Source: Gemmatimonadaceae bacterium
GTDB lineage: Bacteria > Gemmatimonadota > Gemmatimonadetes > Gemmatimonadales > Gemmatimonadaceae
Length of the DNA: 64,000 bases
Direction of reading: 5' to 3'
Assembly (NCBI GenBank): GCA_031360095.1
Contig: JANMAY010000055.1
Span: forward strand, 175 to 64,174
Notes under the pieces: generated by a model
Database searches by the model: none
The model's input: only the letters and a program-made list of their open reading frames with translations
Told to the model about the DNA's origin: nothing
Shown: positions 11,742 through 64,000 of the stretch, piece after piece
Position numbering within the stretch: the first letter of the stretch is position 1
Layout: each line of letters starts with the position of its first letter
Position numbers and translations under genes: made by a program

Positions 11742-11855
11742 GGGCGGCGACGGAGGACAAATGAGCACGCACAGCTCGAATGTGTGCCCGGTGCGCTCTA
11801 TTGACTACCCCGCTGACTCTCGCGCGCGTGGAGTGGAGCGAGTAGTCTGGGTGCT

Positions 11856-18226: not shown

Positions 18227-18286
18227 TCGCACGTGCCAACATCGCGTCGGCCGCGAGCGTACTGCTTAATCGACCCCCATCACACC

Positions 18287-27816: not shown

Positions 27817-30480
27817 CTACATCGGTGTAATCGGCGTGAGCGTCACAGGCCCCACCAGTCCCGATACCCGTACCGGCCACGTCGACGCGTCGAACGGCCG
27901 ATAGTCGAACCCGACATAATTGATGTCGTGAAACGTCTTCCACGAGACGCCGCGCACGTCGAGATCGCGCACACGATTTGCCGAGAGGTTCGTCACCTCG
28001 ATCTCGAGCAGGTTGTTCTTCGCGCGCAGCAAACCTGTCGCGACGCGGAACGGTCGCGCGATCAGTGTGCCGAGGTCGCGTCCGTTCAGCCGGATGCGCG
28101 CGCTCTCCGCCACTCGCCCGAGATCGAGGGAATGGTTCCGCGCGGATGACGGCGCGTCGAAGCGGAGTGCGTATCGGGCCGTGCCGGCGAAGCGGTCCGC
28201 GTCGGCGTCTCCGCGGCCCGTCCATGGAGTGAGTGAGTCGGCAGCGAACGAGGCGGGAAGTGCCGGGCCACCGCTCGTGAAGGTTACCGACCACGTGCCG
28301 CGAAGCGTGATAGGTGCGCCTGTCACACTGTCGTATGCCCAGCGCGGCGCATCGATGCGCCTGTCGAAAGTGCGCAGGATGAGCGAGGAGCCCGGATCGA
28401 GATGCACGCGGACATCGACTCCGCCCTCTTTGCCAGGACGCATATCGGCGAGTCCAGTGCGACCCGTCATCGGATCCATGATCGCGACATGTGCCGCTGT
28501 CGTCGCGAGCGACACCCAGCCGTGCACGGGTTCCGTGCCCGCGTGGCCGATGAAATACTGGCGACCGCTCACCAAGCGCTGCCGAATGAATCGCACACCC
28601 GGTCGGTCCACCATCGTCTCTCGGTGAATGCCGGACGCCGCCAGCAGCGGCTCGAGCTGTTCCCCAACGAGCAACCTGCCCGATCCGACGCGCGCCGCGC
28701 GTACTCCCGCCGCGTCTGCATCCCCGAACCGCACCTGCTGCTTCGCTGTCGCGAGGAGTGCACGACGAGCTTCGAGCTCGAACAGTCCGGGAACATCGGA
28801 CGGCAGAGATCCGAGGAAGACGACGGTCGCCCCGCTTCGCGCCAGCTCGACGAGACGCTGGAACGTTTCGAGTGGCATGTGCTGCGCGCGAGGCACCACC
28901 ATCGCCGCGTATTCCGCGTTGCCCGCGCGCAGGCGATTGCCCGATGTGTTGACGCTCGTCGCCAGCAATCGGTCGGAGACATAGTCGAACCCGTGTCCAG
29001 TCTTCCAAAGCTCCGTGGCGACCGTGCCGACCGGCTTGTCGAACAACCATCTGGCGTTGCGCACCGCGAAATCCACCCGCAGGCGCGTCGTGTCGTGCCA
29101 GTTGTCCCATACGGGCCAGTAGAGCAAGACGTCGTTGTCCGCGCGACCCGCCTGCATCACCGATTGCACACGCGCCACGTACCGATTCAGCACAGGGAGA
29201 TCGCGCCAGAATGCGTTCCGCGGGTTGAACTCCGCCGACGCATAGAACTCCCAGCCCGGCCACGCGACATTTGCCGGCGAATACGCCGTGCCATGATAGA
29301 TCAGATGATTGATGCCGCCGAGAAAAAAGGCGTCAGCCGCCTGCTTCACGTCGTCGAGCGTCGCCGAGAAGTGCTCGCCGAGCCAGGTGAACGCTTCGGC
29401 GGAGGCAAGTGGCAGACCTGCAACGTGCGCGGCGGACGACGCAAACTTGGCCACGAGAATGTCTTCGTCGTTGCTGCTCGGCCGCCCGAATATTTCGGTC
29501 TCCGGCACATCCGACGCGGCATAGAGATCGAGCAGGTTGCCCGGTGAGCCGTGCGCCTGGTTGCGGCTCTTGCTGGCGCGCGCATGCGACCACTCGCGCA
29601 ACGGAAGGAGAAAGTTCGCGAGCAGCATTTCGTCCAGCGTCTGCCGATAGTCCGACTTCACGCGCGCAATGCGCTCCGGATCGCCCTGCCCCGCGAGTGC
29701 CGCGAGCTCGCGCCTGAGGTCGTACTTGCGAGCCCCCAGAAAAAAGTCGAACAGCTCCGATGAGCCGGTTCCCGTATACTCGAAGGAATCGTGGAAGTAC
29801 GCGCCGACCAATCCCCGTTGCATGGGGCCAAGGCGCTCCGCATAGGTGCGCAGAAAATTGTCGGTCGCGGCGCGGGAGAAGACGTCGATCGCAAACCCTT
29901 CCCCCCCCGGCCCCGGACGCTTCACGTTGTCGCCGGAGAAGCGCATCTCGGCGACATGTGTACCCTTCGCCGAGTCGAAGGTGATGCGCAGCGATTTGTT
30001 GGCGTCCGTCGGCGTGACCGTCGCCCCACCGGTTCGCCATCCTGCACCCGGCGGCATGTCGAGTCCCATGCCGAGCCGGTGCGCCTGAGTCGCGGCGTGC
30101 GCGAGCAGTGCGTTCCATCGTGGCGTCAGATACGGAACGAACTGCGACTCCGCACCCTTGGCGCCGTAGATCGCCGTGACTTCGACGCCGCCGAATCCCG
30201 CACCGGCGAGTTGCGTGAGCTCTCTGGTGAGATTGGCCGAATCGACGGCGCTTCCCATCCACCACCAGCGCGTCCACGGTTTGGCGTCGCGGGTGATGGC
30301 CGGCCAGGCGAGAGGAGTGCCATCGCCGCGAGGGCGCTGTGCGAACGCTCCGCGCGACGACAGGAATGCAACTGCAACGACAATGAGCCTGGTGACGCGC
30401 AACGAGGTGCTAGTGTAGATACTGCGCGACAAACGACAGCACGTCGCTCTTGTCCATGCGGAACACACCGCCGGTTCCAC
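27817..30480 (-). CDS. Secreted glycoside hydrolase, GH106-like (alpha-L-rhamnosidase type)
   Basis: 887-aa ORF. The N-terminal motif [15 protein letters not shown] followed by [11 protein letters not shown] is what I recall from BT0986-type GH106 enzymes. The family call is from memory only. The longest ORF start (30480) overlaps the upstream protease gene by 71 nt. An in-frame TTG at 30402 (…[21 protein letters not shown] signal) lies 7 nt after the protease stop and is the more likely start. Confidence 0.55.
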
Positions 30481-45515: not shown

Positions 45516-45537
45516 GGAGTGTCTCCTCGGTTTGATC

Positions 45538-47078: not shown

Positions 47079-47990
47079 ATGCCCGGCACGCACTTCACCC
47101 CCGCCAGCTCCACGGACGCCGTATCGGCCATAGCGTTCGGTGCCTTGCAGGGCCGGGTGGAGCAGGTTCTCAACGCCATTGACGACGGCGTCTTCTGCCT
47201 CGATGCTGAAGGTCGCGTGATTTTCATCAACGAGGCAGCCGTTCGACTGCTCGGATTCACGACTCGCGAGGTGATCGGACAGTCGATGCACGCGCTGTCA
47301 CATCACCACTATGCAGACGGCTCGGTATTTCCCGCGGAATCGTGCCCGATCCTCTCGTCAGTGACCGATGCAGTCCAACAGCGCGTTGGCGGCGACACGT
47401 TCTGGACGAAAGCCAAATCGCCGCTGCCCGTGGATTACACGAGTATCCCGATCAAGGACGGGCGGATCGTGGTAGGAGTGGTCGTCACGTTCCGGGACAT
47501 CAGCGAGCAGCAGCGGTCGGAAGAACAGGCGGCCCGGCTCAAGGGAGAGCGGGCTGCACGTGCCGAGGCGGAAGCGGCGCGAGAAGCCTTGCGAGTCAGC
47601 GAAGCGCGCTACCGGTTCCTCGCCGAGGCGATCCCGGTGCTGATCTGGACGGCTCGGCCAGACGGTGGGTTGGACTACGTGACACAACGCGTTGCCGACT
47701 ACTTCGGAACGTCCGTCGAGCAACTGCTCGCCGATGGGTGGAAAAACGTCGTTCACCCCGACGATCTCCCTGGCGTCGCGGAGCAGTGGGGCCATTCACT
47801 CAACACCGGGGAACCGTACAAAGTCGAGTTCCGACTCCGGGCGGCCGACGGTACGTTCCGCTGGCATCTCGCCCGTGCGCTCCCCCAGCGCGACGCCGCA
47901 GGCAAAGTCGTTCACTGGTTCGGAACCAATACCGAAATTGAGGATCAGAAACAGCAGTTGCTGCAGCAGACGTCACGGATGATCGTGTAG
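47079..47990 (+). CDS. Stand-alone tandem PAS/PAC domain protein (no output domain)
   Basis: ORF 46686-47990 trimmed to the ATG at 47079, giving 303 aa. Two PAS-like modules (DGVFCLDAEGRVIFINEAAVRLLGF... and IPVLIWTARPDGGLDYVTQRVADYFG...HWFGTNTEIEDQK) are joined by a charged coiled segment. The upstream part of the ORF overlaps pilT antisense. Confidence 0.7.
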   Translation: MPGTHFTPASSTDAVSAIAFGALQGRVEQVLNAIDDGVFCLDAEGRVIFINEAAVRLLGFTTREVIGQSMHALSHHHYADGSVFPAESCPILSSVTDAVQQRVGGDTFWTKAKSPLPVDYTSIPIKDGRIVVGVVVTFRDISEQQRSEEQAARLKGERAARAEAEAAREALRVSEARYRFLAEAIPVLIWTARPDGGLDYVTQRVADYFGTSVEQLLADGWKNVVHPDDLPGVAEQWGHSLNTGEPYKVEFRLRAADGTFRWHLARALPQRDAAGKVVHWFGTNTEIEDQKQQLLQQTSRMIV

Positions 47991-48035
47991 CACGCCTTCG
48001 AATTGTCGGGCTGATGGTCGCTCACCAACAGCTCC

Positions 48036-50081: not shown

Positions 50082-50091
50082 CGCCGGCGGG

Positions 50092-51921
<1,830 letters not shown>

Positions 51922-52035
51922 AAACGGACGGGGAGCGGCGAAGGGGAGCCACGAACAGCGGTCGCGAGGCGCCGCGAGTCCGGACAAAGGACGGACGCTG
52001 AAGCTCGCCCCCTACGTCGTGCCTGTCAAGAATTT

Positions 52036-52677
52036 CTAATGTCCGGTGCGGGCAGGCGTCGCGCCGGAGAAAGTAACCAGATCACTGAGCTTTTGAAGGG
52101 TAGCGGCTCCAAGACCCTTGACTCGACCTAGTCCGTCAAGGGATTTGAACGCGCCAAAGGAGTCGCGATTGGCGACGATTCGCCTTGCCGTCGCCGCGCC
52201 AACGCGGGGGAGCTTGTCGATTTCGGCCGCACTGGCAACGTCGAGGTCGATGCGCGACCGCTCACCTTTATATATGGTAGCGCGCGGGAGCGGCGCTGGA
52301 GTCCGATAGTCGACATCGATTCGAGGTCCGGGCGGCGGAAAGCCGGATCTGGACGAGACGGACCCGTACGGGGCGTGAGAAAATGGGTCGTCTGGCCTGG
52401 CAAAGTTCTGTGGGACGGAGGCGACACCAGCGACTATTTTGGCGACAGTATCGCGACTGCTAGGCGTCATTTTATGCTGTCTAGCTCCTTTGCTGCGCTT
52501 TGTTTTCGTGGCCTCCGCGGCGGCTTGATCTGCTGCCGTTGCTTGACCTGCGAGGGCCTGCTGCTCCGATTCAGTCGGACCCGCTGCGGAGCCGGCGCGA
52601 ACGACCCGGACGGCGCCGCCGAGCAGGATGATGATGGCGACGAAGGCGAGGGCCTTTTGTTCTGAGGGTGTTGGCAT
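52036..52677 (-). CDS. comEA: ComEA-like helix-hairpin-helix DNA-binding protein
   Basis: ORF 52036-52728 trimmed to the ATG at 52677 (MPTPSEQKALAFVAIIILLGGAV membrane anchor). The C-terminal tandem HhH region is IDLDVASAAEIDKLPRVGAATARRIVANRDSFGAFKSLDGLGRVKGLGAATLQKL. Confidence 0.75.
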   Translation of the reverse strand: MPTPSEQKALAFVAIIILLGGAVRVVRAGSAAGPTESEQQALAGQATAADQAAAEATKTKRSKGARQHKMTPSSRDTVAKIVAGVASVPQNFARPDDPFSHAPYGSVSSRSGFPPPGPRIDVDYRTPAPLPRATIYKGERSRIDLDVASAAEIDKLPRVGAATARRIVANRDSFGAFKSLDGLGRVKGLGAATLQKLSDLVTFSGATPARTGH

Positions 52678-52834
52678 GGGGCGGAAGATGCCGAGTGTGG
52701 CCACCTGTCCATCACCGAATCCGTGCATGTACGATCAAAACACCCGACGTGTCGCGGAGAACTTTCAAAGCGCTTGCTCAGAAGTCCTCCGCGACAACCA
52801 AACTTCGCAGTGGATTTGCCTTGTTGCGGCGGTG

Positions 52835-53317
52835 TTACGCCGCCTTTCTGGTCGAGATGGGGAGCGGAACCAACTCCGCCGCACGGACCCGACCAAAGAC
52901 TCGCCGCTCAACGATCGCATCGACTGAGAATGCGCCCGCGCCCGTCACGCCAAGAGCTGTGGCCATGGCGAGGAGTGCGAGGGGGAACTCGAATCCGCCG
53001 GGGTTGAAGAATCCCGCCTTGAGATGCACAGCCAGGATGGCTACGACCATGGTGCTGGAGAGTCCGAACGCGGCGAAGCGCGTCAGGAGGCCGAGGATGA
53101 TCGCGAGCCCGCCGAAGAGCTCGACGAGGGCGACGAAGGGTCCGAGCAGGCCTGGTATGGGCATGCCCATCTGCGCGAATGCGCCAGAGACGCCGGCGAA
53201 GCCATAGACGAACAACTTTTGCCCCCCGTGCATGACGAAGGTGGCGCCAAGGACGACGCGGAGGATTGTGAGGCCGATGGTGACTTGGCGCGCGGAGGGA
53301 GAACGGAAGATCGACAT
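52835..53317 (-). CDS. DoxX family membrane protein
   Basis: 160 aa with four predicted transmembrane helices. The characteristic DoxX stretch is LRVVLGATFVMHGGQKLF...VELFGGLAIILGLLTRFAAF. Confidence 0.8.
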   Translation of the reverse strand: MSIFRSPSARQVTIGLTILRVVLGATFVMHGGQKLFVYGFAGVSGAFAQMGMPIPGLLGPFVALVELFGGLAIILGLLTRFAAFGLSSTMVVAILAVHLKAGFFNPGGFEFPLALLAMATALGVTGAGAFSVDAIVERRVFGRVRAAELVPLPISTRKAA

Positions 53318-53361
53318 GAGAGGGTGCCTCGAGTGAGTGGTGATTCGGTGTCGCGATACTT

Positions 53362-53375
53362 GGTGTTATAACATC
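53362..53375. promoter_or_regulatory. Putative MarR operator GGTGTTATAACATC (contains the perfect palindrome TGTTATAACA)
   Basis: Read directly. It lies in the AT-rich 75-bp gap between the marR stop and the doxX start. It matches the site upstream of marR (53872-53885) in 13 of 14 positions. Confidence 0.5.
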
Positions 53376-53392
53376 TATTAGTTCAAAAAAAC

Positions 53393-53860
53393 CTAATCTT
53401 TGTCTCGCGCCTTGGTGAGCAAATCGATCAATGAGCGCAACTGAGCGTCGGTAAGGTGCCCGAGCTGCGCTTCGTGCAACTCGCTGACAGGCTGGTCGAG
53501 CTCGTCCAGCAGTCGAAGCGCCCTGGCGGTGATCCGGGTGGAAACGAGCCGCCGATCGTCGCTGTCTCTCGAGCGCAACACCAGCCCCGCCTCCTCCATC
53601 CGGTCGAGCAGGCGTGTCATGTCCGGCATGCGCGTAAGCATGCGGTCGCGCAGTGCGTTTCGACATAACCCGTCGGGTTCCGAGCCCCGAAGAATCCGGA
53701 GCACGTTGTACTGCGTGCCACTGATGCCATACGGCTTGAACAAATCTTCCATGGCATCCACGAGCGCCGTCGACGTCCGCAGCACATTCAGAAAGCACTC
53801 CTGGGAGAGGCTCGTGAACGGCTTGCTCTGGCGAAGATCACTGCGAAGCGTGGCGGGCAT
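53393..53860 (-). CDS. MarR family transcriptional regulator
   Basis: 155 aa with a winged-helix region (GISGTQYNVLRILRGSEPDGLCRNALRDRMLTRMPDMTRLLDRMEEAGLVLRSRDSDDRRLV) typical of the MarR/SlyA family. Confidence 0.85.
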   Translation of the reverse strand: MPATLRSDLRQSKPFTSLSQECFLNVLRTSTALVDAMEDLFKPYGISGTQYNVLRILRGSEPDGLCRNALRDRMLTRMPDMTRLLDRMEEAGLVLRSRDSDDRRLVSTRITARALRLLDELDQPVSELHEAQLGHLTDAQLRSLIDLLTKARDKD

Positions 53861-54073: not shown

Positions 54074-55027
54074 TCATTGATCCATGATCAACGACAGCGC
54101 AACGTCTCCGACGATCTGTAGACTCTTCGCCGAGACATGCTCCATCGTATCCCCGAGCGTGTGATGGTAGTTCGGAGAGGAGTAGCCTGCCGGCCCGAGC
54201 GGACCGTAGTCGATGTCGAGCACGTCGATCACGCGATATCCCTTCTGGAGGAACGGCACGTGGTCGTCGGTGATCGCCGACGCATACGCGCGCGGGATGA
54301 AGTACTTGGCGTATCCCAGGTCCGCGGCCTTTTGCCACACTCTGCTCACGACCTCCGGCGCGCCGTTCATCGAGTTGGGCTCCTGAAGGATGTTGAGGTC
54401 TGCGTCGCCGATCATATCCCAGAGCACGCCGTAGATGGGCCGGTAGTCGGGTGACGGCGGATGCGCAACGAAGTACTGCGAGCCGAGGAGCACGTCGGTG
54501 TACGGTGGATCGAAGCTGGTGCCGTAGTCCTCACCATCCACGAGCAACAGGTCCACGCCGATGTTGGGCGGTGTCTTCTTCATCACGTCGGCAAGCGCAA
54601 TGAACAACCCGACGCCGGAGGCGCCGTCGTTGGCGCCGAGAATGGGCGTCGCGCGGTTGCCGAGCACTGGATCGCTGTCGGCCACAGGACGCGTATCCCA
54701 GTGCGTGATGTAGAGCACGCGCTGCGTGGCGTGCGGACGAAAGCGCGCGAAGATGTTTCGCAGCGCGATCGAGTCGCCCTTGAGCGTTTTGTGCTTCCAG
54801 CGCTGCTCGATGACGGTGTCCGCGCGCTGCTTCATCATCGTCACGATCCAATCCCCGGCCTTCTCGGCTCCGGCAGTGCCAGGCACGCGCGGACCGAAGG
54901 CGACCTGCTGTCGCACGTACGAAAGCGCCGAATCACCGTTGAAGGCGGTCTTCGGCCGGCTCGGCAGCTTATCGCAGGCGGTGAGGCTGATCGCAGCAGC
55001 GAGAATCATCAGCACGCGAATCGTCAT
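54074..55027 (-). CDS. M28-family lipoprotein, glutaminyl cyclase-like
   Basis: 317 aa. The lipobox is MILAAAISLTAC. The motifs ITHWDTRPVADSDP, GANDGASGVGLFIALADVM and LLLVDGEDYG are those I recall from bacterial type II glutaminyl-peptide cyclotransferases and related M28 peptidases. Confidence 0.65.
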   Translation of the reverse strand: MTIRVLMILAAAISLTACDKLPSRPKTAFNGDSALSYVRQQVAFGPRVPGTAGAEKAGDWIVTMMKQRADTVIEQRWKHKTLKGDSIALRNIFARFRPHATQRVLYITHWDTRPVADSDPVLGNRATPILGANDGASGVGLFIALADVMKKTPPNIGVDLLLVDGEDYGTSFDPPYTDVLLGSQYFVAHPPSPDYRPIYGVLWDMIGDADLNILQEPNSMNGAPEVVSRVWQKAADLGYAKYFIPRAYASAITDDHVPFLQKGYRVIDVLDIDYGPLGPAGYSSPNYHHTLGDTMEHVSAKSLQIVGDVALSLIMDQ

Positions 55028-55033
55028 TGATGG

Positions 55034-55149
55034 GTAGGACTGTAGGACGGTAGGCCGGTAGGACGGTAGGACGGTAGGACGGGAGAGAGCGGAGCGGGGG
55101 AGACCAGCGGGAGCGGATCGTGTTGCAGTTTGCGGTCCTACGGTCCTAC
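55034..55149. repeat. Second inverted array of the 8-bp unit: (GTAGGMYK)x6 at 55034-55081 and (GGTCCTAC)x2 at 55134-55149
   Basis: Counted directly. The left-arm units are GTAGGACT, GTAGGACG, GTAGGCCG, GTAGGACG, GTAGGACG, GTAGGACG. After a 52-bp spacer come two reverse-complement units. The element fills the gap between the sprA stop (55151) and the M28 gene start (55027). Confidence 0.9.
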
Positions 55150-55150
55150 G

Positions 55151-58100
55151 TCATTTCGGTTCCCCAAAGAACTGCACCTGCAGCACCGTCGACAGCACGA
55201 GCTGTGTCGCGCGACGGTTGAAGTTGTTGTCGTACGTGATCACACGCGAGCCCTGCAGCGTGAAGATTACAGTTTCGCTCAAGTCGGTGTCGGCATTGAT
55301 GCTCACCGCGCTGCGGCCGTTGTCGGCGAGGCGGCTCGTTCCCAGGCGCGCAAGATCGTTGATGTACGTGCTCGTGCGCGTCTGCTGCCACCCCACACGC
55401 GTGCGAATGTCGTTCTCGATGGTGAAGCCGAGGCTTTTCGGCAGCTTGAATGGACGGCCGATATCGAGGCTCACTTCCTCGGACCTTCCGTCGGCGACGC
55501 TGCCGGGAAGTGAATCGACGCGCGTCGTCAGTGTATAGCCGGCAGACGATGTGAGCCCGCGCCCGAAGCCCCACAGCACCGACGCATTGAGCGGGATGGT
55601 GCGCGTTCGTGAGCCGCGGAGCTCCGGTCGCTCACGGTTTACATCGCCGGGCAAAAGGGTGGACGCAAGGGAGCGCGCGTAGCCGGCGTTGGCGCCGACG
55701 GAGGCGAGAAATGGCAGCACCATTGCGGGCGGCTTCCAGTTCCAGCGAACGCTGACGTCGGGGAACACGGTCTGTGCGCCGTCGGCGACAGACTGCGCGT
55801 CGTCGGAGCGACGCGTCCAACTGCGCGTCGTGGTGCGGCGGTAGCGATTTACGAAGGCGACGTTTCCGGGAAAGAGAAACGACTGGCTCGCAGCGAGCGC
55901 CTGGGTGAGGCCGGTGGTCGCAGCGAGTTGGCCATTCGCCTGTCGAAACGCATCGATGCCTCCCAGTCCGAACTGCAGGCCGAGGGGCGAACCGTTGCTG
56001 GCGGCGTCGAACGCGGAGAGCAAGCTGCGATTGACGGTGATGTCGAGTGGCGCAAACACTCTGGCAAGCCGCCGAGCGAGCGAGGAATCCGCGCCGTAGA
56101 TCGTGAGGGCGCGGCCGAGATCGATCGTCACGCCGCCGCCGAGGTTCTGCGACACCGTGATACGGCGCGGCAATGTCTCCGTCACGGTGTTGCCGAACGT
56201 GAGACCGGCGAGCGAGCCGGCGTTCGGATCGCGCAGCATGCCGTACTGCGTGCCGAAGTCCACGCGCGGCTTGAACCACTGCGAGCGCTGTGGCGCGAAT
56301 GCCATCGACGTGAGCAGAGAGCGTTCGCGCTCCATCCCGACATTGGCGCCGAACAGCTGCGCGCGACTATCGGTAGCCGCTCGGGCAGCGGCGGTCGTAT
56401 CCCCATAGTCGCGGAGGTCGCGCAATGAGATGAAGTCCCAGCGCGCGGTGAGTGCGTCGGTAGGGCGGAACTCGAGCGTGCTCGCGTTGCGCCACAGGTT
56501 TTGTTCGGCGCGCGAGACGCGAGCGGAATCGTCGAACGCGGCGGCGGGCTTGAGAAACGAAAACCGCTGATCGGTACCGCGCACCACGCCGCTGGAGAAG
56601 CGCAGCACCGTGGGATTCCAGCGAAACAGCGTGGGTTGATTGAGGGTGTCCGCGAAGCGAAAGAATCCAGGCATGAACCTCGACGGCGAGCCAAGCAGCC
56701 CGGGCACGCGCGTGCGCCGCGCTTCCGCCGCGACGCTGTAGTCGAGGCTCATCGCAAAGTTGTCACTCACGCCTCGCTGATATTCGTTGCGGCTGTCGCC
56801 CGTGGTGTAGGTCGAGGTCAACCCGAGATTGTCCACCAGCGCGCTGACGAGCGGATTGCCCACAGGCGCCGTACGACGCACCGTGAGCGCGTACGTCGTG
56901 ACCCCCTGGGACGGAGCGCGCAGATTCTGCACTCCCGCGCCGGGAACGTCGGTGCCACTCAGGAACAGTGGTGTACTCGCCGCAGACACGTGCGTGATGG
57001 TGAGCGGCACGGCGAACCCGAAGCTCACCGGCAACAGCTTTTCCAGATGCACGGTGCCAACGAGATCGAACACGCGATCGTTCACGAAGCTCGGCTGGTC
57101 GGTGAGCTGGCGAAAGTACGGATCCTTCTTCGTGAACCCCACGCGAATGTCAGCGATGCCCGCCGCGGATAGCGCAACGCTCATCTGGCCGGCATATCCG
57201 GGATGGTTGACGACCTGGCCGAGCCGGATGTCGTCGACCCAGAGTTCGAGTGAATCGGCAGGGCCGATCGTGCTCGGTGCACCGCCCGTCGCCGGAAGGC
57301 GGACGAAGCCAACGGCCATCTCCTGCACCGCCGCGAGATTGGGCGGTGCCGCTCCCGGCTCGACGGTGTACACCATGTAGCCGCCGTCGCACGCGGCGTA
57401 GCGCTGCTGGCCGGAGATCGCGGGAATCGGCGATGCGTTCACCAGGGCCGCATCGGCACCTGTGCACGAGAGCGTGTCGCCCTTGTTCTGCAGATACGCG
57501 TTCTGGATGCGCTGTCGCAACTGGAAGAAGCGGTCGAAGTCCACCCGGACTTCGGGATTCCATGCCTCCTGCCCCGGACCACTGTTGACCGGCGTGCGAT
57601 AGAGATAAAAGTTGTTCGCATCGCGTCCGATCTTCACGTACATCTGGAGCTCTCCGCGATCACCCCATCCGTTGCGGCGTCCGCGCGCCCAGAGCCTGAG
57701 CTGCTGGTACCCCATGAAGCTCTGCTGGCCATTGGGAAAGCGATAATACGCTTCGGCTCGGCCATACACCGGAAGGTTGCCCGCCTGTAGACGCAGCGAG
57801 CGCTCGTTGATCTGTGTCAGCCCCGTCGTGAACTGCGAGGTGCGCGTGTCGGCTTCGTCGATCACGCCGGGGGGCGGCTGGTAGTCGTCGCCGCTGACGG
57901 TGGACTTGTCCGCCGTTCCGATCAGCGACGTTTGCGTATATCCACCGGCTGGCCGCTCGCCAGCGATGCCCGACAGCGTTTGCTCGTTGCGCTTGATCCA
58001 CGGCGCTCCGGTGAGCTTGAGGCGCGCGAGGGGAATCTGAATGAACTCATCGTCGCGCGCACCTGCCCCGCTCACCATCGTCACGCGCAGCGCACGAACG

Positions 58101-61100
58101 CGGCGCAGGAGCACGTCGTTGAGCGTGTCGTCGGCGAGGCGGAAGGGCACCTTCACCTGCACCCACTGAAGCGCGCGAGGGGTGCCCGTGGCATCCAGGC
58201 GCTGGACGAACCGCTTTCCGAATCGCACCCAGCGTTTTTGATCGCTGAGGTCGACGACGAAGCGTGTGATGCGCTCGCGATCGCGCACGCTGCTCGGCAA
58301 GTTGAGGACGTTGTCGAGATCGATGTCTTCCTCGTCGAGCTTGTTGTTGTGCACCGTGCAATTAGCGCGCGTGTCGCCAAGTCGCGCGACGACGTTCAGC
58401 GTGCCGGAGCAGAGGGGAACGTTGAAGGCGCGTGTTGTCCCCGCGCCGGTGTCGACGAGCAGCGTATCCGCGATGTCGCCCGGCAGTCCGGTGTCGTTCG
58501 CATCGGCGTTGAATGCGCGGGAGATGGGATCGCGCTCCGAATCCAGACGGTCGAATCCCTGGAGCTTTTTGCCACGAAAGAGCGAGTCCGGCGTGGAACC
58601 GGGCCGGACGACGAGCGTTTCCGGCGCGAATGCGACGGTGTTCTCGGAGATCTCACCGAGATCGAAGACGAGTGTGGGATTGGACGCACGGCGCGCCGCG
58701 CTCGTGTCGACGAGCGTCCAAAACTCGAGGTCTTCGACGCGCGAGAGATCGGCACCGGACGGACTGAGCACGGTGCGCACGGACCGAAATCGGCGACCGG
58801 ATGGCGCGTTGGCGACCGACCAGGCATACGTGCGCGTCGCAGGATCGTACCGGCCGCCGATGCTCAAAGGATACAACGTGAGCCAGAGCACCGTCTCATT
58901 CGACGAGAAGAGGCCAGCGGTGAGCGCATTCTGATCGATGCTGTCACCGCGCACGAGGACGTTCACCCCATCGGCCGAGAGGCCGTTGTTCTGAAATGCG
59001 ATGGTGGAGGCTCGGCGAAGATCGAACGGATTGACGCCGTATTTCCGCGGCAGGAGGTGTCCGTCGGCGGGTTGACTTGCGAGCGCCCAGTTCTGGTCGG
59101 AGAGACCGACGGTAATCCCTGCCTCGCCCTCGAAGCTTTCGATGAACGCCTGGGCCTGTGTGTTCAGCTGCGGGCGGCTGGTGGCGAATTCGCCTTGCAC
59201 GCTGAGTCGTGACGGCGTCGTGCTCTTCACGAACGGCAAACGATTCATCAGCCGGGTGAGCGGCGCGACCTCCCATCCGATCTGCCCATTCACGCCGGCA
59301 AGAAGCGACGACACCGGCTCGAAGCCGAGCTGCGGGCGAGTGAAGTTGGTTTTCTGCGACTGCTGGACGGCGATGAAATTCAGCTCGCCATTCGGGAGTG
59401 GGAGTGTGCTCGTCATGCCGAACAGCGTCGTGGGTGTGACGGCGAACAGCGGATTCTCTTCGAATCGAACGCTCACCGCGCGCTGGCGTGTGAACAGCGT
59501 GTCTGGCCGCGCGAAGGTGAGCCGGCCGAGCTCGTAGTCGACGCGATAGTCGACGTCGCGCACGAGCGGCCTGCCATCGAGCACGACGCGCTCCGATCCC
59601 CTGCGCACCTGCACGCTGCCGAGCATGACGGCGCCGCCGGTGGATTCGGTGCTGGCATCGGTCTCGTAGCGCACCTTCAGGCGATAGACGTTCGCGGGAT
59701 GCTGCGGCGAATAGAGGTATTCGCCCGGGGTGACGTAGATCGCGTCGTTACTCGGGTTGCCCGGCACGACAAGCCCCGAGTCGCGGCGGGCGAACGGCTG
59801 AAGGGAGGGAAAGATCACGAAGTGGTCGCGAATGATCCGTCCGCCGCTCGCCGCGCTCGCGCTCGATGCGGCGCCAAGGGAGGCCGCACTCGCGAGTCCG
59901 GCAGTGCCGCCGGCTGCTGCGCTGTAGTTCGGATCGGAGGGTCGTGGCCACAGGCGGTTCTCGATGTCGAAGCTCGCGGGGTTGGTGGCTTGCGCGAGGC
60001 CGAGCATCTGGAGGAACGTTGCGTACGATCCTGCGGCGGGCTTTTCCTGCTCCCCTGCTCCGCTCACGATGCGAAGCGTGGTCGTGGCGCGCACCAGCTC
60101 CTCGCCACCCACGCGATACACCGAGCGGATCTCGCGCCGAAACGCCGGCGTGCCAGGAAGCACGTTGGGATCGGACACGAGGTTCGCCTGCTGATCGGCG
60201 CTGCTGAACTGCAGATCGGGAGTTCCGCCGGTGGCGGGGTAGACGGTGTCGACGCCATTGATGCGAACGGTGTACGCGACGACGAGGCGCTCGTTGGTCT
60301 GATTGAGGGGGCGCACCAGCGCGAACCAGAGCTGCGACGGATCGAGATAGTAGTCGACGCCTTCGCGAAGTACGTCGTACGTCTGCCGGCCGCCACCCGG
60401 ATCTCCGATCAGGCGAAAGCGCGGCCCGTTGGGATTTTGCGGTTGGGTGCCGAACTGCACGCGGTACAGGAGGACGCGTCGTGGGCGCAGGGTGTCGGGG
60501 AGTGACGCGGCGAGGGCCGTGAGTTGGCGGCGGTCGAGAATGTCGATGTTCGGATACGTTCCGGTGAACAGCGTGGGATCGACGGTGAAGAAGAAGCGCC
60601 TCGGCTCGATCTGATTGTCGAGGATTTCGTGCTCGGCGCTCTGGCGGGTGCGGTCGGCGATGAGATACGTGCGCTCCTGTGCGATGTTGCCTTTCTGCTG
60701 GGCGGCGATTGCCTGGAGACGAAAGCGCCCCAGGCGTCCGTTTGCCTGGAGCCCGTAGTTTCCGCTCGGCACGCCGCTGGAGAGGAATCGCGTGGAGGGC
60801 AGCGCGAAGGCGACGTTGCCCACCTCCACGCGCTGAAGGCGGTCGGTGGCTTTACCCTGGTAGTAGATGTTCAGTGCATTCGACGCGTCGAACTCGCGCT
60901 GGGTGTCGTAGTCGACGTTCACGTGCACACGATCCGCCACGGTGCCGGTGCTTTGCATCGTGAACTGGAACTTGAAGTCCGGGGTCAGGCCGGGCCGACA
61001 TTCCACGCCGGGGATGAACTGGCCGGTGTTGCATTTCTCGTCGAGCCGGCGTTCACCTTTGGCCTCGATGCGGGTGCGAACGTCGACATTGAGGTCCGTA

Positions 61101-61315
61101 TTCGGCCCAAAGAGGCCCGGCTTTTTGCCCGTGTCGGCGGCTGGGGCGCGCGGGAGCCTGGGCTTTCGGCTCGAGTCGGCGCCGGGCGGATGCAACGTGT
61201 CCACCCGCACGGAGTCCACGCGCGGCACCGGTGTGGACGGCGGCTGCTGCGCGCTCGCGGGCGAAGGCATGGCGAACACCGCAATTGCGGCGACGAGCCG
61301 GAGAACGCGCACCAA
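55151..61315 (-). CDS. sprA: SprA-like giant outer-membrane protein (type IX secretion translocon family)
   Basis: 2054-aa ORF with a signal peptide (VLRLVAAIAVFAMPSPASAQQ). The N-terminal block NIYYQGKATDRLQRVEVGNVAFALPSTRFLSSGVPSGNYGLQANGRLGRFRLQAIAAQQKGN parallels the conserved SprA block (...LEAGNVSMP...GxQxLFG...QFG...AQQxS). The rest has beta-rich composition throughout. The start codon is TTG (61315) or the adjacent GTG (61312). Confidence 0.7.
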   Translation of the reverse strand: MVRVLRLVAAIAVFAMPSPASAQQPPSTPVPRVDSVRVDTLHPPGADSSRKPRLPRAPAADTGKKPGLFGPNTDLNVDVRTRIEAKGERRLDEKCNTGQFIPGVECRPGLTPDFKFQFTMQSTGTVADRVHVNVDYDTQREFDASNALNIYYQGKATDRLQRVEVGNVAFALPSTRFLSSGVPSGNYGLQANGRLGRFRLQAIAAQQKGNIAQERTYLIADRTRQSAEHEILDNQIEPRRFFFTVDPTLFTGTYPNIDILDRRQLTALAASLPDTLRPRRVLLYRVQFGTQPQNPNGPRFRLIGDPGGGRQTYDVLREGVDYYLDPSQLWFALVRPLNQTNERLVVAYTVRINGVDTVYPATGGTPDLQFSSADQQANLVSDPNVLPGTPAFRREIRSVYRVGGEELVRATTTLRIVSGAGEQEKPAAGSYATFLQMLGLAQATNPASFDIENRLWPRPSDPNYSAAAGGTAGLASAASLGAASSASAASGGRIIRDHFVIFPSLQPFARRDSGLVVPGNPSNDAIYVTPGEYLYSPQHPANVYRLKVRYETDASTESTGGAVMLGSVQVRRGSERVVLDGRPLVRDVDYRVDYELGRLTFARPDTLFTRQRAVSVRFEENPLFAVTPTTLFGMTSTLPLPNGELNFIAVQQSQKTNFTRPQLGFEPVSSLLAGVNGQIGWEVAPLTRLMNRLPFVKSTTPSRLSVQGEFATSRPQLNTQAQAFIESFEGEAGITVGLSDQNWALASQPADGHLLPRKYGVNPFDLRRASTIAFQNNGLSADGVNVLVRGDSIDQNALTAGLFSSNETVLWLTLYPLSIGGRYDPATRTYAWSVANAPSGRRFRSVRTVLSPSGADLSRVEDLEFWTLVDTSAARRASNPTLVFDLGEISENTVAFAPETLVVRPGSTPDSLFRGKKLQGFDRLDSERDPISRAFNADANDTGLPGDIADTLLVDTGAGTTRAFNVPLCSGTLNVVARLGDTRANCTVHNNKLDEEDIDLDNVLNLPSSVRDRERITRFVVDLSDQKRWVRFGKRFVQRLDATGTPRALQWVQVKVPFRLADDTLNDVLLRRVRALRVTMVSGAGARDDEFIQIPLARLKLTGAPWIKRNEQTLSGIAGERPAGGYTQTSLIGTADKSTVSGDDYQPPPGVIDEADTRTSQFTTGLTQINERSLRLQAGNLPVYGRAEAYYRFPNGQQSFMGYQQLRLWARGRRNGWGDRGELQMYVKIGRDANNFYLYRTPVNSGPGQEAWNPEVRVDFDRFFQLRQRIQNAYLQNKGDTLSCTGADAALVNASPIPAISGQQRYAACDGGYMVYTVEPGAAPPNLAAVQEMAVGFVRLPATGGAPSTIGPADSLELWVDDIRLGQVVNHPGYAGQMSVALSAAGIADIRVGFTKKDPYFRQLTDQPSFVNDRVFDLVGTVHLEKLLPVSFGFAVPLTITHVSAASTPLFLSGTDVPGAGVQNLRAPSQGVTTYALTVRRTAPVGNPLVSALVDNLGLTSTYTTGDSRNEYQRGVSDNFAMSLDYSVAAEARRTRVPGLLGSPSRFMPGFFRFADTLNQPTLFRWNPTVLRFSSGVVRGTDQRFSFLKPAAAFDDSARVSRAEQNLWRNASTLEFRPTDALTARWDFISLRDLRDYGDTTAAARAATDSRAQLFGANVGMERERSLLTSMAFAPQRSQWFKPRVDFGTQYGMLRDPNAGSLAGLTFGNTVTETLPRRITVSQNLGGGVTIDLGRALTIYGADSSLARRLARVFAPLDITVNRSLLSAFDAASNGSPLGLQFGLGGIDAFRQANGQLAATTGLTQALAASQSFLFPGNVAFVNRYRRTTTRSWTRRSDDAQSVADGAQTVFPDVSVRWNWKPPAMVLPFLASVGANAGYARSLASTLLPGDVNRERPELRGSRTRTIPLNASVLWGFGRGLTSSAGYTLTTRVDSLPGSVADGRSEEVSLDIGRPFKLPKSLGFTIENDIRTRVGWQQTRTSTYINDLARLGTSRLADNGRSAVSINADTDLSETVIFTLQGSRVITYDNNFNRRATQLVLSTVLQVQFFGEPK

Positions 61316-61454: not shown

Positions 61455-63278
61455 GTGAAGATAATCACCCGTTACGTCCTCCGGGAACACGCTGGCCCAC
61501 TGGCGTTCGCGTTCACTGCGCTGACGTCGTTGATGCTGCTGAACTTCATCTCCCGGCAGTTCGGGGAGCTGGTGGGCAAGGGGCTGCCGTGGAGCGTGAT
61601 TGGCAAGTTTTTCCTCCTGTCCATTCCGTTCACGGTGGCACTCACGGTACCGATGTCCGTGCTCGTGGCAGTGCTGTTTGCGTATAGCCGGCTGGCGGCG
61701 GAGAACGAAGTAACGGCGCTCAAGGCCAATGGGGTGAGTCCGTGGCGCATGGTCACGCCGGCGATTCTGGCCGGGCTGGTGATGTCGGCGCTGCTGCTGG
61801 CCTTCAACGACCAGGTGCTGCCGCGTGCCAATCACGAGCTCAAGACGCTGCAAGAGGACATCTCGCAGACGCGACCCACGCTGCTGCTCAAGCCGCAGGT
61901 GATCAACGCCGTCTCGGAAGGAAAGTTGTACTTGAAGGCGGGATCGATCGACAATGGTGGCGGCCGGATGAAAGAGGTGGTGATCTACGATCTCAGCGAG
62001 TCGACGCGGCGGCGCACGATCTACGCGCAGCGCGGCGCGATTGCCTTCGCGCCCAATAAAGTCGACCTCGATCTCGATTTGTATGATGGCGAGATGCAGG
62101 AGGTGTCGACCGAAAAACCCACTCAGCTGAGCCGGATGTTTTTCAAGAAGGACCGCATTCGCGTTCGAAATGTCGGGCGGACCTTCTCGCAGAGCGCATC
62201 CGATTCGTCAAGCAAGGGCGATCGCGAGATGAGCATCTGCGAGATGCAGAAGCGTCTCTGGTCCGAGGAGACGCGCTACGACATGGCGAAGCGCGAATAC
62301 GCGCAGGTGCAGCGAGCGACGAATCGGTCGCTCGATCAACTGCCGCCGAGCTTCCGCCGCAAAATCGCGGAGCCACATGGCATCGGGTGGGTGTACTGCA
62401 CGCTGATGAACAAGGTGGGAGCGGTGCGCACCGCACACGCTGCCGACGTGGGCGCTGTGGTGTTGCACGCGTGGCAGGACACGGTGCCCCGGAAGCCGGT
62501 CGTGCAGCCGGCGATCGTGCGTGTGGAGTCGACGGCTGCCACGCCGCCGGTACGTCCGGAGACGAGCACCGCGGCCAAGCCGGTCATGATCACCCCACTG
62601 CAGGCACCAGCCACCGTCCCTGCGCCGGTACAGCAACCGGTGCAGCAACCGCTGCAGCAACCGCTGCAGCAGCCGGCGGTGGGAGTTGGCCAGCCCGTGT
62701 TGACGCCATTGCCCGCGGGCACTGTTCCCGGGGTCACTCCGGGTGTTCCAGGACCGGCGATGGATGCACAGGCCAGAATCGCCGCGCAAGCTGCGGCGGC
62801 GATGGCGACCGGGAACGTGTCCACTGAAATGACGATGCTGACTGCACGAAAGATGGAGGCGAAGGTGCGGTTGGACATGGCACAGCGTGCGCGCAATCGC
62901 TACGACATCGAGATTCACAAGAAGTTCTCGCTCGCGGCTGCATGTTTGATCTTTTGCATCGTGGCGCCGCCGATTGCGCTGCGCTTTCCGCGCGGCGGGG
63001 TGGGGCTGGTGCTCGTCGTGAGCCTGGTGGTGTTCGCGCTGTACTACGTGGGGCTGATCGGCGGCGAGTCATTGGCCAACAAGGGAATCGTGCCGCCATT
63101 TTGGGCGATGTGGGGCACAAACGTCATCATGACGCTGGTGGGGCTCGTGCTGCTGTTGCGCATGGGATACGAGAGCAACACCGGTCGCGGAGGCGGTGTG
63201 CGTGAATGGCTCGACAACATGCGGGCGCGGCGGGAGGATCGGCGAGCGGCGTCGCTTCGTGCGAAGGCCGCGGCATGA
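61455..63278 (+). CDS. LptF/LptG-family (YjgP/YjgQ) permease with a long Pro/Gln/Ala-rich insertion
   Basis: ORF 60942-63278 trimmed to the in-frame GTG at 61455 (VKIITRYVLREHAGPLAFAFTALTSLMLLNFI, the canonical family N-terminus). It has three N-terminal and three C-terminal transmembrane helices. At 607 aa it is much longer than the usual ~360-400 aa. The upstream part of the ORF overlaps sprA antisense. Confidence 0.8.
   Translation: MKIITRYVLREHAGPLAFAFTALTSLMLLNFISRQFGELVGKGLPWSVIGKFFLLSIPFTVALTVPMSVLVAVLFAYSRLAAENEVTALKANGVSPWRMVTPAILAGLVMSALLLAFNDQVLPRANHELKTLQEDISQTRPTLLLKPQVINAVSEGKLYLKAGSIDNGGGRMKEVVIYDLSESTRRRTIYAQRGAIAFAPNKVDLDLDLYDGEMQEVSTEKPTQLSRMFFKKDRIRVRNVGRTFSQSASDSSSKGDREMSICEMQKRLWSEETRYDMAKREYAQVQRATNRSLDQLPPSFRRKIAEPHGIGWVYCTLMNKVGAVRTAHAADVGAVVLHAWQDTVPRKPVVQPAIVRVESTAATPPVRPETSTAAKPVMITPLQAPATVPAPVQQPVQQPLQQPLQQPAVGVGQPVLTPLPAGTVPGVTPGVPGPAMDAQARIAAQAAAAMATGNVSTEMTMLTARKMEAKVRLDMAQRARNRYDIEIHKKFSLAAACLIFCIVAPPIALRFPRGGVGLVLVVSLVVFALYYVGLIGGESLANKGIVPPFWAMWGTNVIMTLVGLVLLLRMGYESNTGRGGGVREWLDNMRARREDRRAASLRAKAAA
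62625..62672 (+). repeat. Four tandem 12-nt units (CCGSTRCAGCAR) encoding PVQQ-PVQQ-PLQQ-PLQQ
   Basis: Counted directly. The repeat is in frame within the permease gene and lies inside its low-complexity insertion. Confidence 0.9.
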
Positions 63279-64000
63279 GAGTCGGGCATCCGCTGGACCG
63301 CTACGTCTTCGTGGAATGGACGAAGATCTTCCTCGCTACGGCTCTGGGCCTGCCGTTTCTGCTGGTGATCATCGATTTGACGGATCACTTGCAGGTATAC
63401 CTCGATCGAAGCATTCCGCGCGGCGACATCCTGCTGAGCTATCTCTACTGGATACCGCAGTCGATGTTTCTGGCCATGCCGGCCGCTGTGCTGTTCGCGA
63501 CGGTCTTCTCGATTGGCACGTTGACGCGGCACTCGGAGGTGACGGCGGCGAAGGCGTCGGGGATCAGCTTCTATCGGCTCGTCGCACCGATTCTGCTCGG
63601 GGCGTTGCTGGCGGCGGGCGCGGACCTCGTCATCGGGGAGTTGGTGCCCATTACCGACGCGAGGCGCAACGACCTGCTAGGGGAAAGCAAGATCGGATCG
63701 GGAACGCAGCGCGCGAATTTTGCCTTTGCCGGCGAGTACGGCCGCGTGTTCAAGGCGCAGCTACTCGATGTCACGCGGTCGTCGCTGGACGGTCTCCAGA
63801 TCGAACGCCGCGGGCGAGGGGCGGATTACCCAACCGTGGTGATATCCGCGGTGGGCGCGAAGTTCGTTCCCAACACCGGGTGGATCGTTCGAGAAGGAGA
63901 GATGCACGTCATTCGTGATACGACTCCCGCGATGAACCTGAGCTTTACCCAAATGCGGGACCGCCGGATGAATGAGGTGAAGCCGGCGGACATGATGGCC
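63275..64000 (+). CDS. Second LptF/LptG-family permease, N-terminal part; the gene continues beyond the window end
   Basis: My own translation from the ATG at 63275 gives MRVGHPLDRYVFVEWTKIFLATALGLPFLLVIIDLTDHLQVYLDRSIPRGDILLSYLYWIPQSMFLAMPAAVLFATVFSIGTLTRHSEVTAAKASGISFYRLVAPILLGALL... The start overlaps the upstream stop (ATGA at 63275-63278). It is not in the ORF track because it runs off the edge. Confidence 0.8.
   Translation, partial: MRVGHPLDRYVFVEWTKIFLATALGLPFLLVIIDLTDHLQVYLDRSIPRGDILLSYLYWIPQSMFLAMPAAVLFATVFSIGTLTRHSEVTAAKASGISFYRLVAPILLGALLAAGADLVIGELVPITDARRNDLLGESKIGSGTQRANFAFAGEYGRVFKAQLLDVTRSSLDGLQIERRGRGADYPTVVISAVGAKFVPNTGWIVREGEMHVIRDTTPAMNLSFTQMRDRRMNEVKPADMMA

Follow-up and report, generated by a model that had tools for sequence, protein, structure and literature searches.

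A sprA homologue and a predicted lipoprotein glutaminyl cyclase form a conserved gene pair in Gemmatimonadota

The stretch of DNA analysed here (64 kb, referred to below as the window) carries a gene for a homologue of the type IX outer membrane translocon SprA/Sov, followed on the same strand by a gene for an M28-fold lipoprotein that resembles glutaminyl cyclases (QCs). The closest homologues of both proteins come from Gemmatimonadaceae/Gemmatimonadota MAGs, which agrees with the impression in an earlier note on this DNA that it does not look like a Bacteroidota genome. The genome is that of a member of the Gemmatimonadaceae, soil-type Gemmatimonadota, and lies outside Bacteroidota. The pair and its surroundings are composed of the following features:

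63206..64000 (+): another permease of the lptF/lptG type, truncated at the window end (Pfam LptF_LptG, 120 bits)
61470..63278 (+): LPS export permease of the lptF/lptG type, divergent from sprA (Pfam LptF_LptG, 279.9 bits from ORF residue 177); the start is approximate, as the ORF in the list starts at 60942 and thus overlaps with sprA
55151..61315 (-): sprA, 2054-aa homologue of the type IX outer membrane translocon SprA/Sov (TIGR04189, 6h3i, homologues)
61250..61315 (-): SprA signal peptide, 22 codons, ending in A-S-A (read from the translation)
61244-61249 (-): predicted mature N-terminus of SprA, Gln-Gln codons directly after the signal peptide (translation)
55028..55150 (-): sprA-QC spacer, 123 bp, with inverted arrays of the octamer GTCCTACC (sequence and RNA fold)
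54074..55027 (-): homologue of type II (bacteroidal/animal-like, M28-fold) glutaminyl cyclases, 317-aa lipoprotein, ATG start (PDB phmmer, AF2/Foldseek, residues)
54974-54976 (-): lipobox Cys18 of the QC homologue, L-T-A-C18-D (translation)
53894-53866: sigma-70-like promoter, by the marR/doxX insertion
52835..53860 (-): marR (53393-53860) and doxX (52835-53317), inserted between QC and comEA (Pfam)
52036..52728 (-): comEA-like helix-hairpin-helix protein with an N-terminal membrane anchor (Pfam HHH_3)
50092..51987 (-): pilB, type IV pilus assembly ATPase (Pfam T2SSE, 471 bits, and MshEN)

Both reading frames of the pair were confirmed at the coordinates given for them before, and that of sprA starts with TTG. 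This start, together with the sequence L-V-R-x-L-R-L, is common to many sprA orthologues. Judged by its sequence, the product is a SprA/Sov homologue: TIGR04189 ('T9SS outer membrane translocon Sov/SprA'), an equivalog model of NCBIfam, matched it with 666.9 bits (E 7e-200), exceeding the curated cut-off of 200 more than threefold. The earlier note was thus right that a type IX translocon homologue is encoded here. It had recognized the 2054-aa protein by a conserved N-terminal SprA block, and this ground was not borne out, as the Pfam SprA_N match stayed below the gathering score (21.6 vs 27 bits) and lay at residues 1042-1450; it is the full-length TIGR04189 model that identifies the protein. 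A precomputed PF14349 match is present in many of the close SprA homologues, which share 48-97% identity and are often labelled 'cell surface protein SprA' in Gemmatimonadaceae MAGs. As compared with SprA/Sov of F. johnsoniae and P. gingivalis, the protein matches the same full-length family model (667 bits), is of the same order of size (2054 vs 2403 aa), and likewise has a signal peptide and a mature N-terminal Gln, both predicted here. The pairwise phmmer match to F. johnsoniae SprA (6h3i) is, in contrast, weak (E 1.8e-32), with its best stretch at residues 559-1441. SprA of Bacteroidota is a giant outer membrane beta-barrel of 36 strands, and it is through the sequence similarity to 6h3i that such a barrel may be predicted here. 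At the SprA cleavage position, 37 of the 40 orthologues with a recognisable signal peptide have Gln after a small residue, nearly always as A/Q (the slash marks the cleavage position), and this site is kept although the flanking sequence varies.

The product of the second gene gave 100.6 bits with Pfam Peptidase_M28. Among proteins of known structure, its best phmmer matches were QCs (3tc8, 4.7e-62; TfQC 6qro, 3.7e-59; PgQC 6qql, 1.2e-54; BtQC 4fuu, 2.6e-52), whereas the best true aminopeptidase, YwaD, gave 1e-9. Its AF2 model (pLDDT 87.6) was searched with Foldseek, and the top 50 PDB matches were all QCs, with TM values of 0.82-0.90. By sequence and by modelled fold, the lipoprotein therefore groups with bacteroidal type II QCs and not with aminopeptidases, its cyclase activity being predicted; the suggestion that it is cyclase-like held up in both comparisons. 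It shares with PgQC (PG_2157), TfQC, PiQC, BtQC and PdQC the M28 alpha/beta fold, the N-terminal lipobox, and the single-site Zn ligands Asp, Asp and His (D134, D167 and H289). The Asp-Gly pair after the first ligand (D134-G135) and the catalytic Glu (E166) are present as well, as are D204 and the conserved D254/D255, so that Asp149/Asp183/His299, Asp149-Gly150, Glu182 and Asp248 (Pg numbering) all have equivalents and the Asp248/Asp305 equivalents are kept. D134-G135, E166-D167, H289 and D204 did not vary in an alignment of 28 Gemmatimonad homologues, all of which have the lipobox Cys except one N-terminally truncated entry. The hallmarks of bacteroidal QCs (set out in PMC7948796) fall on invariant residues: D134-G135, E166-D167, in which Asp is the third Zn ligand, H289, Q75, R103, D159 and Y195. 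Unlike the bacteroidal enzymes, to which it is about 35-40% identical, the protein belongs to a different phylum. PgQC, moreover, heads an unrelated three-gene operon, PG_2157-2159, and is not located beside sov (PMC10653852), whereas the Gemmatimonadota gene directly follows sprA.

The physical linkage between sprA and the cyclase gene, to which the earlier note had drawn attention, proved to be conserved well beyond the window. In 160 related loci the block is arranged as lptFG, divergent, and then sprA-QC-comEA-pilB. Among 80 QC-anchored genome loci, sprA lies immediately upstream of QC on the same strand in 47, is adjacent to an inverted QC in 3 more, and is absent in 28, where QC stands beside lptFG. 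Chromosome OY969695.1 is one example of a genome with no sprA at the locus. Conversely, QC is immediately downstream of sprA on the same strand in 69 of 76 informative sprA-anchored metagenome loci, found with a 7-sequence SprA alignment (a 16-sequence alignment was too divergent for the scan), and is missing from 3. In nearly all loci with upstream coverage, a divergent lptF/lptG lies upstream of sprA and, at loci without that gene, upstream of QC. All 80 sprA loci with such coverage share this context, which speaks against further copies of sprA elsewhere in the genomes that lack it here; comEA follows QC in most of the loci, and pilB is likewise a conserved downstream member. The median gap between sprA and QC is 49 bp, and the stop and start codons overlap by 4 or 1 nt in 24 of 108 pairs. 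Adjacency is kept even where the SprA proteins have diverged to about 28-34% identity. Clearly, sprA and QC form a genuine pair that is conserved across Gemmatimonadota and often translationally coupled, the stop codon of one gene overlapping the start codon of the next.

In the window the two genes are separated by 123 bp, which hold six units of GTCCTACC at 55033-55080 and two reverse-complement units at 55135-55150. The RNA of this spacer folds with -37.6 kcal/mol (z -3.4). The octamer hairpin was considered as a terminator and rejected, as it is without a U-tract, and no terminator-like site was found between sprA and QC in this spacer. A 2.5-kb insert between sprA and QC in one related locus (L085) was likewise considered as a type IX gene and turned out to encode an unrelated TonB-dependent receptor; inserts are also present in L086, L090 and L091, and the rejection is based on the L085 insert.

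The presence of SprA raises the question whether the type IX system is complete. Pfam matched no other type IX family among the proteins of the window, as the earlier note had stated, and neither the window nor 10 secreted proteins that were sampled yielded cargo with a type IX C-terminal domain. In contrast to known SprA/Sov systems, PorV, Plug and PPI as partners, PorLM/GldLM as motor and the cargo were not found alongside the homologue within these 64 kb, and the flanks sampled at related loci showed no other type IX gene either. A further difference is that sprA of Gemmatimonadota is polymorphic, being present or absent among close relatives; its distribution on the QC tree requires at least 11 changes if sprA is ancestral. 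These observations would fit a SprA homologue that is an orphan giant outer membrane barrel with another role in envelope biogenesis, in a lineage with no working type IX system. Such a role would explain why sprA is sited with lptFG and easily lost, and TXSScan found complete type IX systems in Bacteroidetes only (PMC4793230). However, type IX genes are normally scattered in genomes, so that their absence from one window says little, and the margin by which the TIGR04189 equivalog cut-off is exceeded argues against a changed function. The literature on type IX secretion or on the Q-rule discussed below in Gemmatimonadota yielded one review sentence, with no report of the Q-rule; the review names Gemmatimonadetes among the phyla that may have a type IX system (PMC11285876). 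On balance, we regard the orphan barrel as unlikely.

As QCs act on N-terminal Gln, the predicted mature N-termini of other exported proteins bear on the function of the pair. Gln was found at position +1 in seven or eight of the eight predicted Sec substrates of the window, among them a TonB-dependent receptor, five glycosidases/lyases and SprA itself; apart from SprA, the proteins with +1 Gln are listed here:

7192..9360 (-): TonB-dependent receptor, predicted signal peptidase I (SPI) substrate, +1 Gln (..PAFATGA/QSPRR)
9327..11768 (-): GH31 glycosidase, +1 Gln (..ASSALA/QVAGD)
11856..14348 (+): oligogalacturonate lyase/GDSL protein, +1 Gln (..PASLAA/QQATS)
14390..17149 (-): GH78 rhamnosidase, +1 Gln (..FPAAISA/QEFHL)
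18233..22312 (+): DUF7133/cytochrome c protein, +1 Gln (..ASASSLRA/QNPAQ)
27817..30480 (-): GH106 rhamnosidase, +1 Gln (..SSRGAFA/QRPRG)

None of the +1 Gln proteins of the window has a type IX C-terminal domain, and the same is true of a periplasmic M13 peptidase and a DUF481 outer membrane protein that also have Gln at +1. Over 2.15 Mb, a site obeying the (-3,-1) rule was followed by Gln in 59.6% of 30 uncurated SPI-like families as compared with 9.5% of control windows, which were taken as an internal control from the mature parts of proteins; the sites of cleavage were set with a home-made heuristic based on the (-3,-1) rule and by eye, and the independent families are few, about 25. The enrichment of Gln after such sites was 6.3-fold, the highest of all 20 residues, with Asn at 0.2-fold and Glu at 0.7-fold. 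In this small sample, and with a heuristic predictor, Gln stands at +1 in the majority of SPI substrates, and at loci without sprA the A/Q site is still found in about 7 of 8 proteins. A prevalence of Gln as the first residue of SPI substrates, predicted here, is likewise typical of genomes with bacteroidal type II QCs: in Bacteroidetes, Bochtler et al. (2018) found a mean of 71% of SPI substrates with +1 Gln (PMC5837995). This pattern is known as the Q-rule, and the predicted N-termini of the window follow it.

In our view, the locus most probably combines sprA with a lipid-anchored type II QC that serves as a general enzyme of Q-rule maturation: its substrates would be exported proteins at large, with SprA and any type IX cargo among them, and it would not be an accessory reserved for type IX secretion. 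The two genes would then be neighbours because envelope-biogenesis genes are co-expressed and the block has been inherited vertically. Judged by its homology to PgQC, the enzyme would be held by the lipid on Cys18 at the inner membrane, on the periplasmic side, where it would cyclise to pyroglutamate the new N-terminal Gln that SPI exposes on an exported protein. The pyroglutamate N-terminus would protect the protein from aminopeptidases, in keeping with the stabilisation of exported proteins by pyroglutamate (PMC10653852). SprA itself, with its predicted ASA/QQ site kept in orthologues, is a candidate substrate. We read QC as a general enzyme because +1 Gln occurs on proteins without a type IX C-terminal domain, because QC is kept at loci without sprA and sprA occurs at loci without QC, and because the Q-rule of the literature covers most SPI substrates and not type IX cargo specifically (PMC5837995, PMC10653852). 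For these reasons we do not follow the earlier note in taking the linkage as genomic support for a functional coupling of the cyclase to type IX cargo.

Still, the coupling of sprA and QC is tighter and wider than a purely general housekeeping enzyme needs, which leaves room for a special relationship. One form that it might take, which we consider a rather long shot, is that the Q-rule and the lipoprotein cyclase go back to the ancestor of a wider FCB-group lineage and first arose in the envelope module of the SprA translocon, that the translationally coupled sprA-QC operon of Gemmatimonadota keeps the original arrangement, and that SprA biogenesis or type IX function depends specifically on QC.

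A stricter version, in which QC is dedicated to the type IX pathway and pyroglutamylates SprA-borne cargo, so that the operon reflects this coupling, appears improbable to us. In its favour, the adjacency persists in distant SprA relatives, and stop and start codons overlap in many pairs. Type IX systems and high Q-values show a 'striking phylogenetic coincidence' according to Bochtler et al. (PMC5837995), and in P. gingivalis Gln is the first residue of 86% of type IX components and cargo (PMC10653852). However, the TonB receptor, the M13 peptidase and the DUF481 protein have +1 Gln without a type IX C-terminal domain, no C-terminal-domain cargo was seen in the window or in the 10 sampled secreted proteins, and the Q-rule persists at the 28 loci that have QC but not sprA. 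Moreover, experiments in P. gingivalis argue against a role of pyroglutamate or the Q-rule in type IX targeting (PMC5837995), and the place of PgQC away from sov does not fit such a dedication.

Least probable of all is that the M28 lipoprotein is no cyclase but acts in the periplasm as an aminopeptidase or has an altered specificity, with the +1 Gln served by another enzyme or left unmodified: two Trp residues that shape the active site of PgQC and human QC are replaced by residues invariant in the Gemmatimonad family (W193 by V179, W298 by H288), NCBI labels the homologues 'M28 family peptidase' and NCBIfam gives weak aminopeptidase matches, but all metal and catalytic residues fit bacteroidal QC, among them the Asp ligand specific to QCs and the Asp-Gly pair, the nearest structures by sequence and fold are all QCs, with aminopeptidases weaker by about 50 orders of magnitude in E-value, JGI labels many homologues glutaminyl-peptide cyclotransferase, and a QC is to be expected in these genomes, given their strong Q-rule. 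As PgQC F294 also corresponds to Y282, in a variable column, three active-site aromatics are changed, so that substrate handling may differ from that of PgQC.

The protein is thus best read as a general Q-rule enzyme, here outside Bacteroidota, and neither gene family is itself new. The QCs of Fimbriiglobus ruber (7d1b) and an Acidobacteriales bacterium (7d18) have the same fold (TM 0.76-0.85) and are more distant than the bacteroidal ones (phmmer E 3e-34 and 2e-32 vs 1e-52 to 1e-62); the enzyme family is therefore already known outside Bacteroidota. We know of no link of QC to sprA or to the Q-rule in these two organisms. The literature casts the Q-rule and its cyclase as specific to Bacteroidetes, and this is the ground on which QC is being pursued as a narrow-spectrum drug target. 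Should the Q-rule also operate in Gemmatimonadota, which are a major phylum of soils, the trait would be older or more mobile than thought, and signal-peptide predictors and N-terminal proteomics of Gemmatimonadota should expect pyroglutamate. The co-occurrence of type IX systems and the Q-rule, noted long ago, would then gain a testable genetic link in the conserved sprA-QC operon, of which variants without sprA and variants without QC occur in nature.

One departure of the window from the common arrangement lies downstream of the pair. The marR and doxX genes between QC and comEA had no tblastn match in any of the 160 related loci, and this insertion is specific to the lineage of the window.

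The translocon gene and the cyclase homologue (QC) next to it were read as follows.

55151..61315, minus strand: sprA, 2054 aa, TTG start
54074..55027, minus strand: QC, 317 aa

The larger product matched NCBIfam TIGR04189, 'T9SS outer membrane translocon Sov/SprA', with 666.9 bits (E 7e-200; curated cut-off 200) and the Flavobacterium johnsoniae SprA structure 6h3i at E 1.8e-32, which bears out the SprA homologue proposed in the earlier note. The conserved N-terminal block by which the note had recognized it is not the real evidence for SprA, since Pfam SprA_N gave only a sub-threshold match in the middle of the protein. The host (window G+C 62-66%) does lie outside Bacteroidota, as had been supposed: the closest homologues of both SprA and QC (70-97% identity) came from Gemmatimonadaceae/Gemmatimonadota MAGs. 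This location is not new in itself, as SprA homologues already carry the NCBI name 'cell surface protein SprA' and a review counts Gemmatimonadetes among the FCB phyla in which type IX secretion may exist (PMC11285876).

The smaller protein has an M28 fold (Pfam, 100.6 bits) and a lipoprotein signal (…SLTAC18DK), and many of its homologues are labelled 'glutaminyl-peptide cyclotransferase' by JGI. Its nearest solved relatives by sequence were the cyclases of Parabacteroides (PdQC 3tc8, 4.7e-62), Tannerella (TfQC 6qro, 3.7e-59), Porphyromonas (PgQC 6qql, 1.2e-54) and Bacteroides (BtQC 4fuu/7d1d, 2.6e-52), versus 1e-9 for the top genuine aminopeptidase, YwaD. The best 50 PDB matches of its AlphaFold2 model (pLDDT 87.6) were glutaminyl cyclases only, the bacteroidal enzymes scoring TM 0.82-0.90. 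E-values of 1e-52 to 1e-62 against 1e-9, together with the predicted fold, support the note's view of a glutaminyl-cyclase-like rather than aminopeptidase-like protein. With the hallmark list of Taudte et al. (PMC7948796) and residues placed via the 7cje alignment, we could assign putative zinc ligands (D134, D167, which is the bacteroidal-specific Asp, and H289), the predicted catalytic residue E166, the D134-G135 pair, D204 as the equivalent of human D248, and Q75, R103, D159 and Y195. All mapped hallmarks were invariant in 28 Gemmatimonad homologues. Three aromatics lining the active site are altered: PgW193 to V179 and PgW298 to H288 (PgQC numbering first), both invariant in Gemmatimonad homologues, and PgF294, whose position is variable among them. 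We take the protein, as far as its sequence goes, for a homologue of the cyclases in which the substrate pocket is modified.

With QC as the anchor and one genome per species, a scan returned 80 loci, all of them from Gemmatimonadota; their gene content was determined by tblastn with the window proteins. The common block was lptF/lptG (divergent), sprA, QC, comEA, pilB. The sprA gene directly preceded QC, both on one strand, in 47/80 loci and lay beside an inverted QC in 3/80 (one clade); it was missing, with lptFG adjoining QC directly, in 28/80, including several of the window's nearest relatives and a complete chromosome, and 2/80 were unclear. The sprA-less loci, in our numbering of related loci, were L002-L004, L008, L010-L012, L014, L018-L020, L045, L047-L049, L051-L053, L057, L060, L062, L067, L070, L072, L073, L075, L076 and L078. 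They were scattered across the neighbour-joining QC tree, sprA was cleanly missing between lptFG and QC, and parsimony placed sprA at the root with at least 11 changes, suggesting that the translocon gene was lost repeatedly in Gemmatimonadota.

A scan of metagenomes with the SprA C-terminus as the anchor added 80 loci (SprA identity 77% to 27%), of which 76 were informative. QC lay directly 3' of sprA on the same strand in 69/76 and was inverted in 1/76; an insert of 2.5-3.9 kb separated the two genes in 4/76, and in 3/76 there was no QC and sprA was followed directly by comEA-pilB. In the one insert-bearing locus examined (L085), the insert was a TonB-dependent receptor. The QC-less loci (L134, L135 and L137) form a divergent clade, 33-34% identical to the SprA C-terminal query, whose genomes may carry QC elsewhere or have lost it. 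Single-gene loss from the block can go either way. In every sprA locus with upstream coverage lptFG lay 5' of sprA, and among the loci scanned no other setting of sprA was seen; true gene loss therefore probably accounts for the sprA-less loci.

The median gap between the sprA stop and the QC start was 49 bp, with a 4- or 1-nt overlap in 24/108 co-oriented pairs, which makes co-transcription likely in this lineage. It is not universal, as in L024, L027, L035 and L126 QC is inverted in place, convergent with sprA, with the rest of the block order kept. The physical linkage pointed out in the note is kept across genomes and metagenomes, and sprA-QC is a real, conserved operon.

For the note, such linkage would be a sign of pyroglutamylation tied to type IX cargo. 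Under the Q-rule, Gln stands at +1 of most signal-peptidase-I (SPI) substrates (Bacteroidetes mean 71%) and is not particular to type IX cargo, and experiments spoke against a part in type IX targeting (PMC5837995); later work found that exported proteins are stabilised under it (PMC10653852). Both papers termed the rule Bacteroidetes-specific, and Gemmatimonadetes were outside their analyses. We examined the N-terminus of every window protein, keeping apart two Tat substrates and several lipoproteins, and found Gln at +1 in 7 clear and 1 ambiguous of 8 Sec/SPI substrates.

Predicted cleavage sites of the window's Sec/SPI substrates
TonB-dependent receptor: TGA|Q
GH31: ALA|Q
PL22/GDSL: LAA|QQ
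GH78: ISA|Q
DUF7133: LRA|Q
GH106: AFA|Q
SprA: ASA|QQ
GH16: AES|Q or APA|E, ambiguous

Among SprA orthologues whose signal peptide could be recognised, the majority keep a small residue followed by Gln (A|Q in nearly all) at its end, the peptides being otherwise divergent. An uncurated statistic over 30 SPI-like families from the window and 160 loci (2.15 Mb) set the c-region against equal-length windows from the same proteins' mature parts. In 59.6% of families, versus 9.5% in the control, Gln came right after a (-3,-1)-rule site, the true value being higher because inner-membrane false positives remain in the set; by eye, about 20/25 families had Gln. Gln was enriched 6.3-fold, the most of all residues (Asn 0.2-fold, Asp 0.6-fold, Glu 0.7-fold). 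Proteins with Gln at +1 included an M13 peptidase, a DUF481 outer-membrane protein and TonB-type receptors, and in no protein of this group was a Pfam type IX C-terminal domain found. Moreover, A|Q persisted in about 7/8 SPI-like proteins of sprA-less loci. These two observations speak against the tie to type IX cargo, and the linkage itself does not demonstrate such a tie. The cyclase is best explained, judging from these N-termini, as a general Q-rule enzyme of Gemmatimonadaceae, with SprA as one of many putative substrates. The tight coupling leaves some room for a special relationship, e.g., dependence of SprA biogenesis on QC.

No other type IX genes were found within the 64-kb window, in agreement with the note; such genes are normally scattered in genomes. 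In TXSScan 2016, complete type IX systems were found only in Bacteroidetes (PMC4793230). SprA in Gemmatimonadota, the Q-rule itself and type II QCs outside Bacteroidota (7d1b, 7d18) are already known or annotated. As far as the literature was searched, two points are new: the Q-rule, which appears to hold in Gemmatimonadota, and QC within a conserved sprA operon of this phylum, with natural single-gene-loss variants.

In the window, the sprA-QC spacer is 123 bp, and no terminator-like site was found in it. Between QC and comEA lie marR and doxX, specific to the window's lineage and with their own promoter-like site. In two intergenic gaps of one gene string the octamer GTCCTACC is tandemly repeated; the arrays form inverted pairs with a spacer of ~35-55 nt between them.

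55033-55080 and 55135-55150: GTCCTACC arrays, sprA-QC spacer
45537-45568 and 45602-45657: GTCCTACC arrays, pilT-pilC spacer

The array 16-mer had 15 matches versus 0.01 expected, and the first array (fold -37.6 kcal/mol, z -3.4) stops 5 nt short of the QC start codon. Exact copies were found in none of the 80 genome loci. The arrays may represent a REP-like hairpin specific to this lineage, or a protein-binding array. The longest lptF/G ORF starts at 60942, overlapping the sprA 5' end by ~370 bp on the opposite strand; since its Pfam domain begins only at residue 177, translation probably starts near 61470, and the divergent promoter region would then span ~150 bp.

The type IV pilus string pilB, pilT, pilC (44316-51987) is broken by a Ser/Thr kinase-TPR gene (48036-50114) and an opposite-strand PAS-domain ORF (46686-47990). 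Its pilC is seemingly split into a 90-aa N-terminal ORF (45243-45515) and a 302-aa ORF (44316-45224), which could be a frameshift or start-codon issue. A large region for utilisation of plant cell-wall/rhamnogalacturonan-type sugars (2152-31243) encodes GH31, PL22/GDSL, GH78, GH16, GH95 and GH106 enzymes, rhamnose mutarotase, FGGY kinase, an aldolase/short-chain dehydrogenase fusion, a TonB-dependent receptor and an ABC sugar transporter; the signals of two of its proteins (23048-25201 and GH95, 25377-27815) are of the Tat type (RRDF), not Sec/Gln. Two large DUF7133 + HEAT + cytochrome c proteins (18233-22312 and 41130-43907, the second a lipoprotein), one with an added 3-keto-disaccharide hydrolase domain and the other with an F5/8 type C domain, resemble membrane-bound dehydrogenase-like proteins common in Planctomycetes/Verrucomicrobia.
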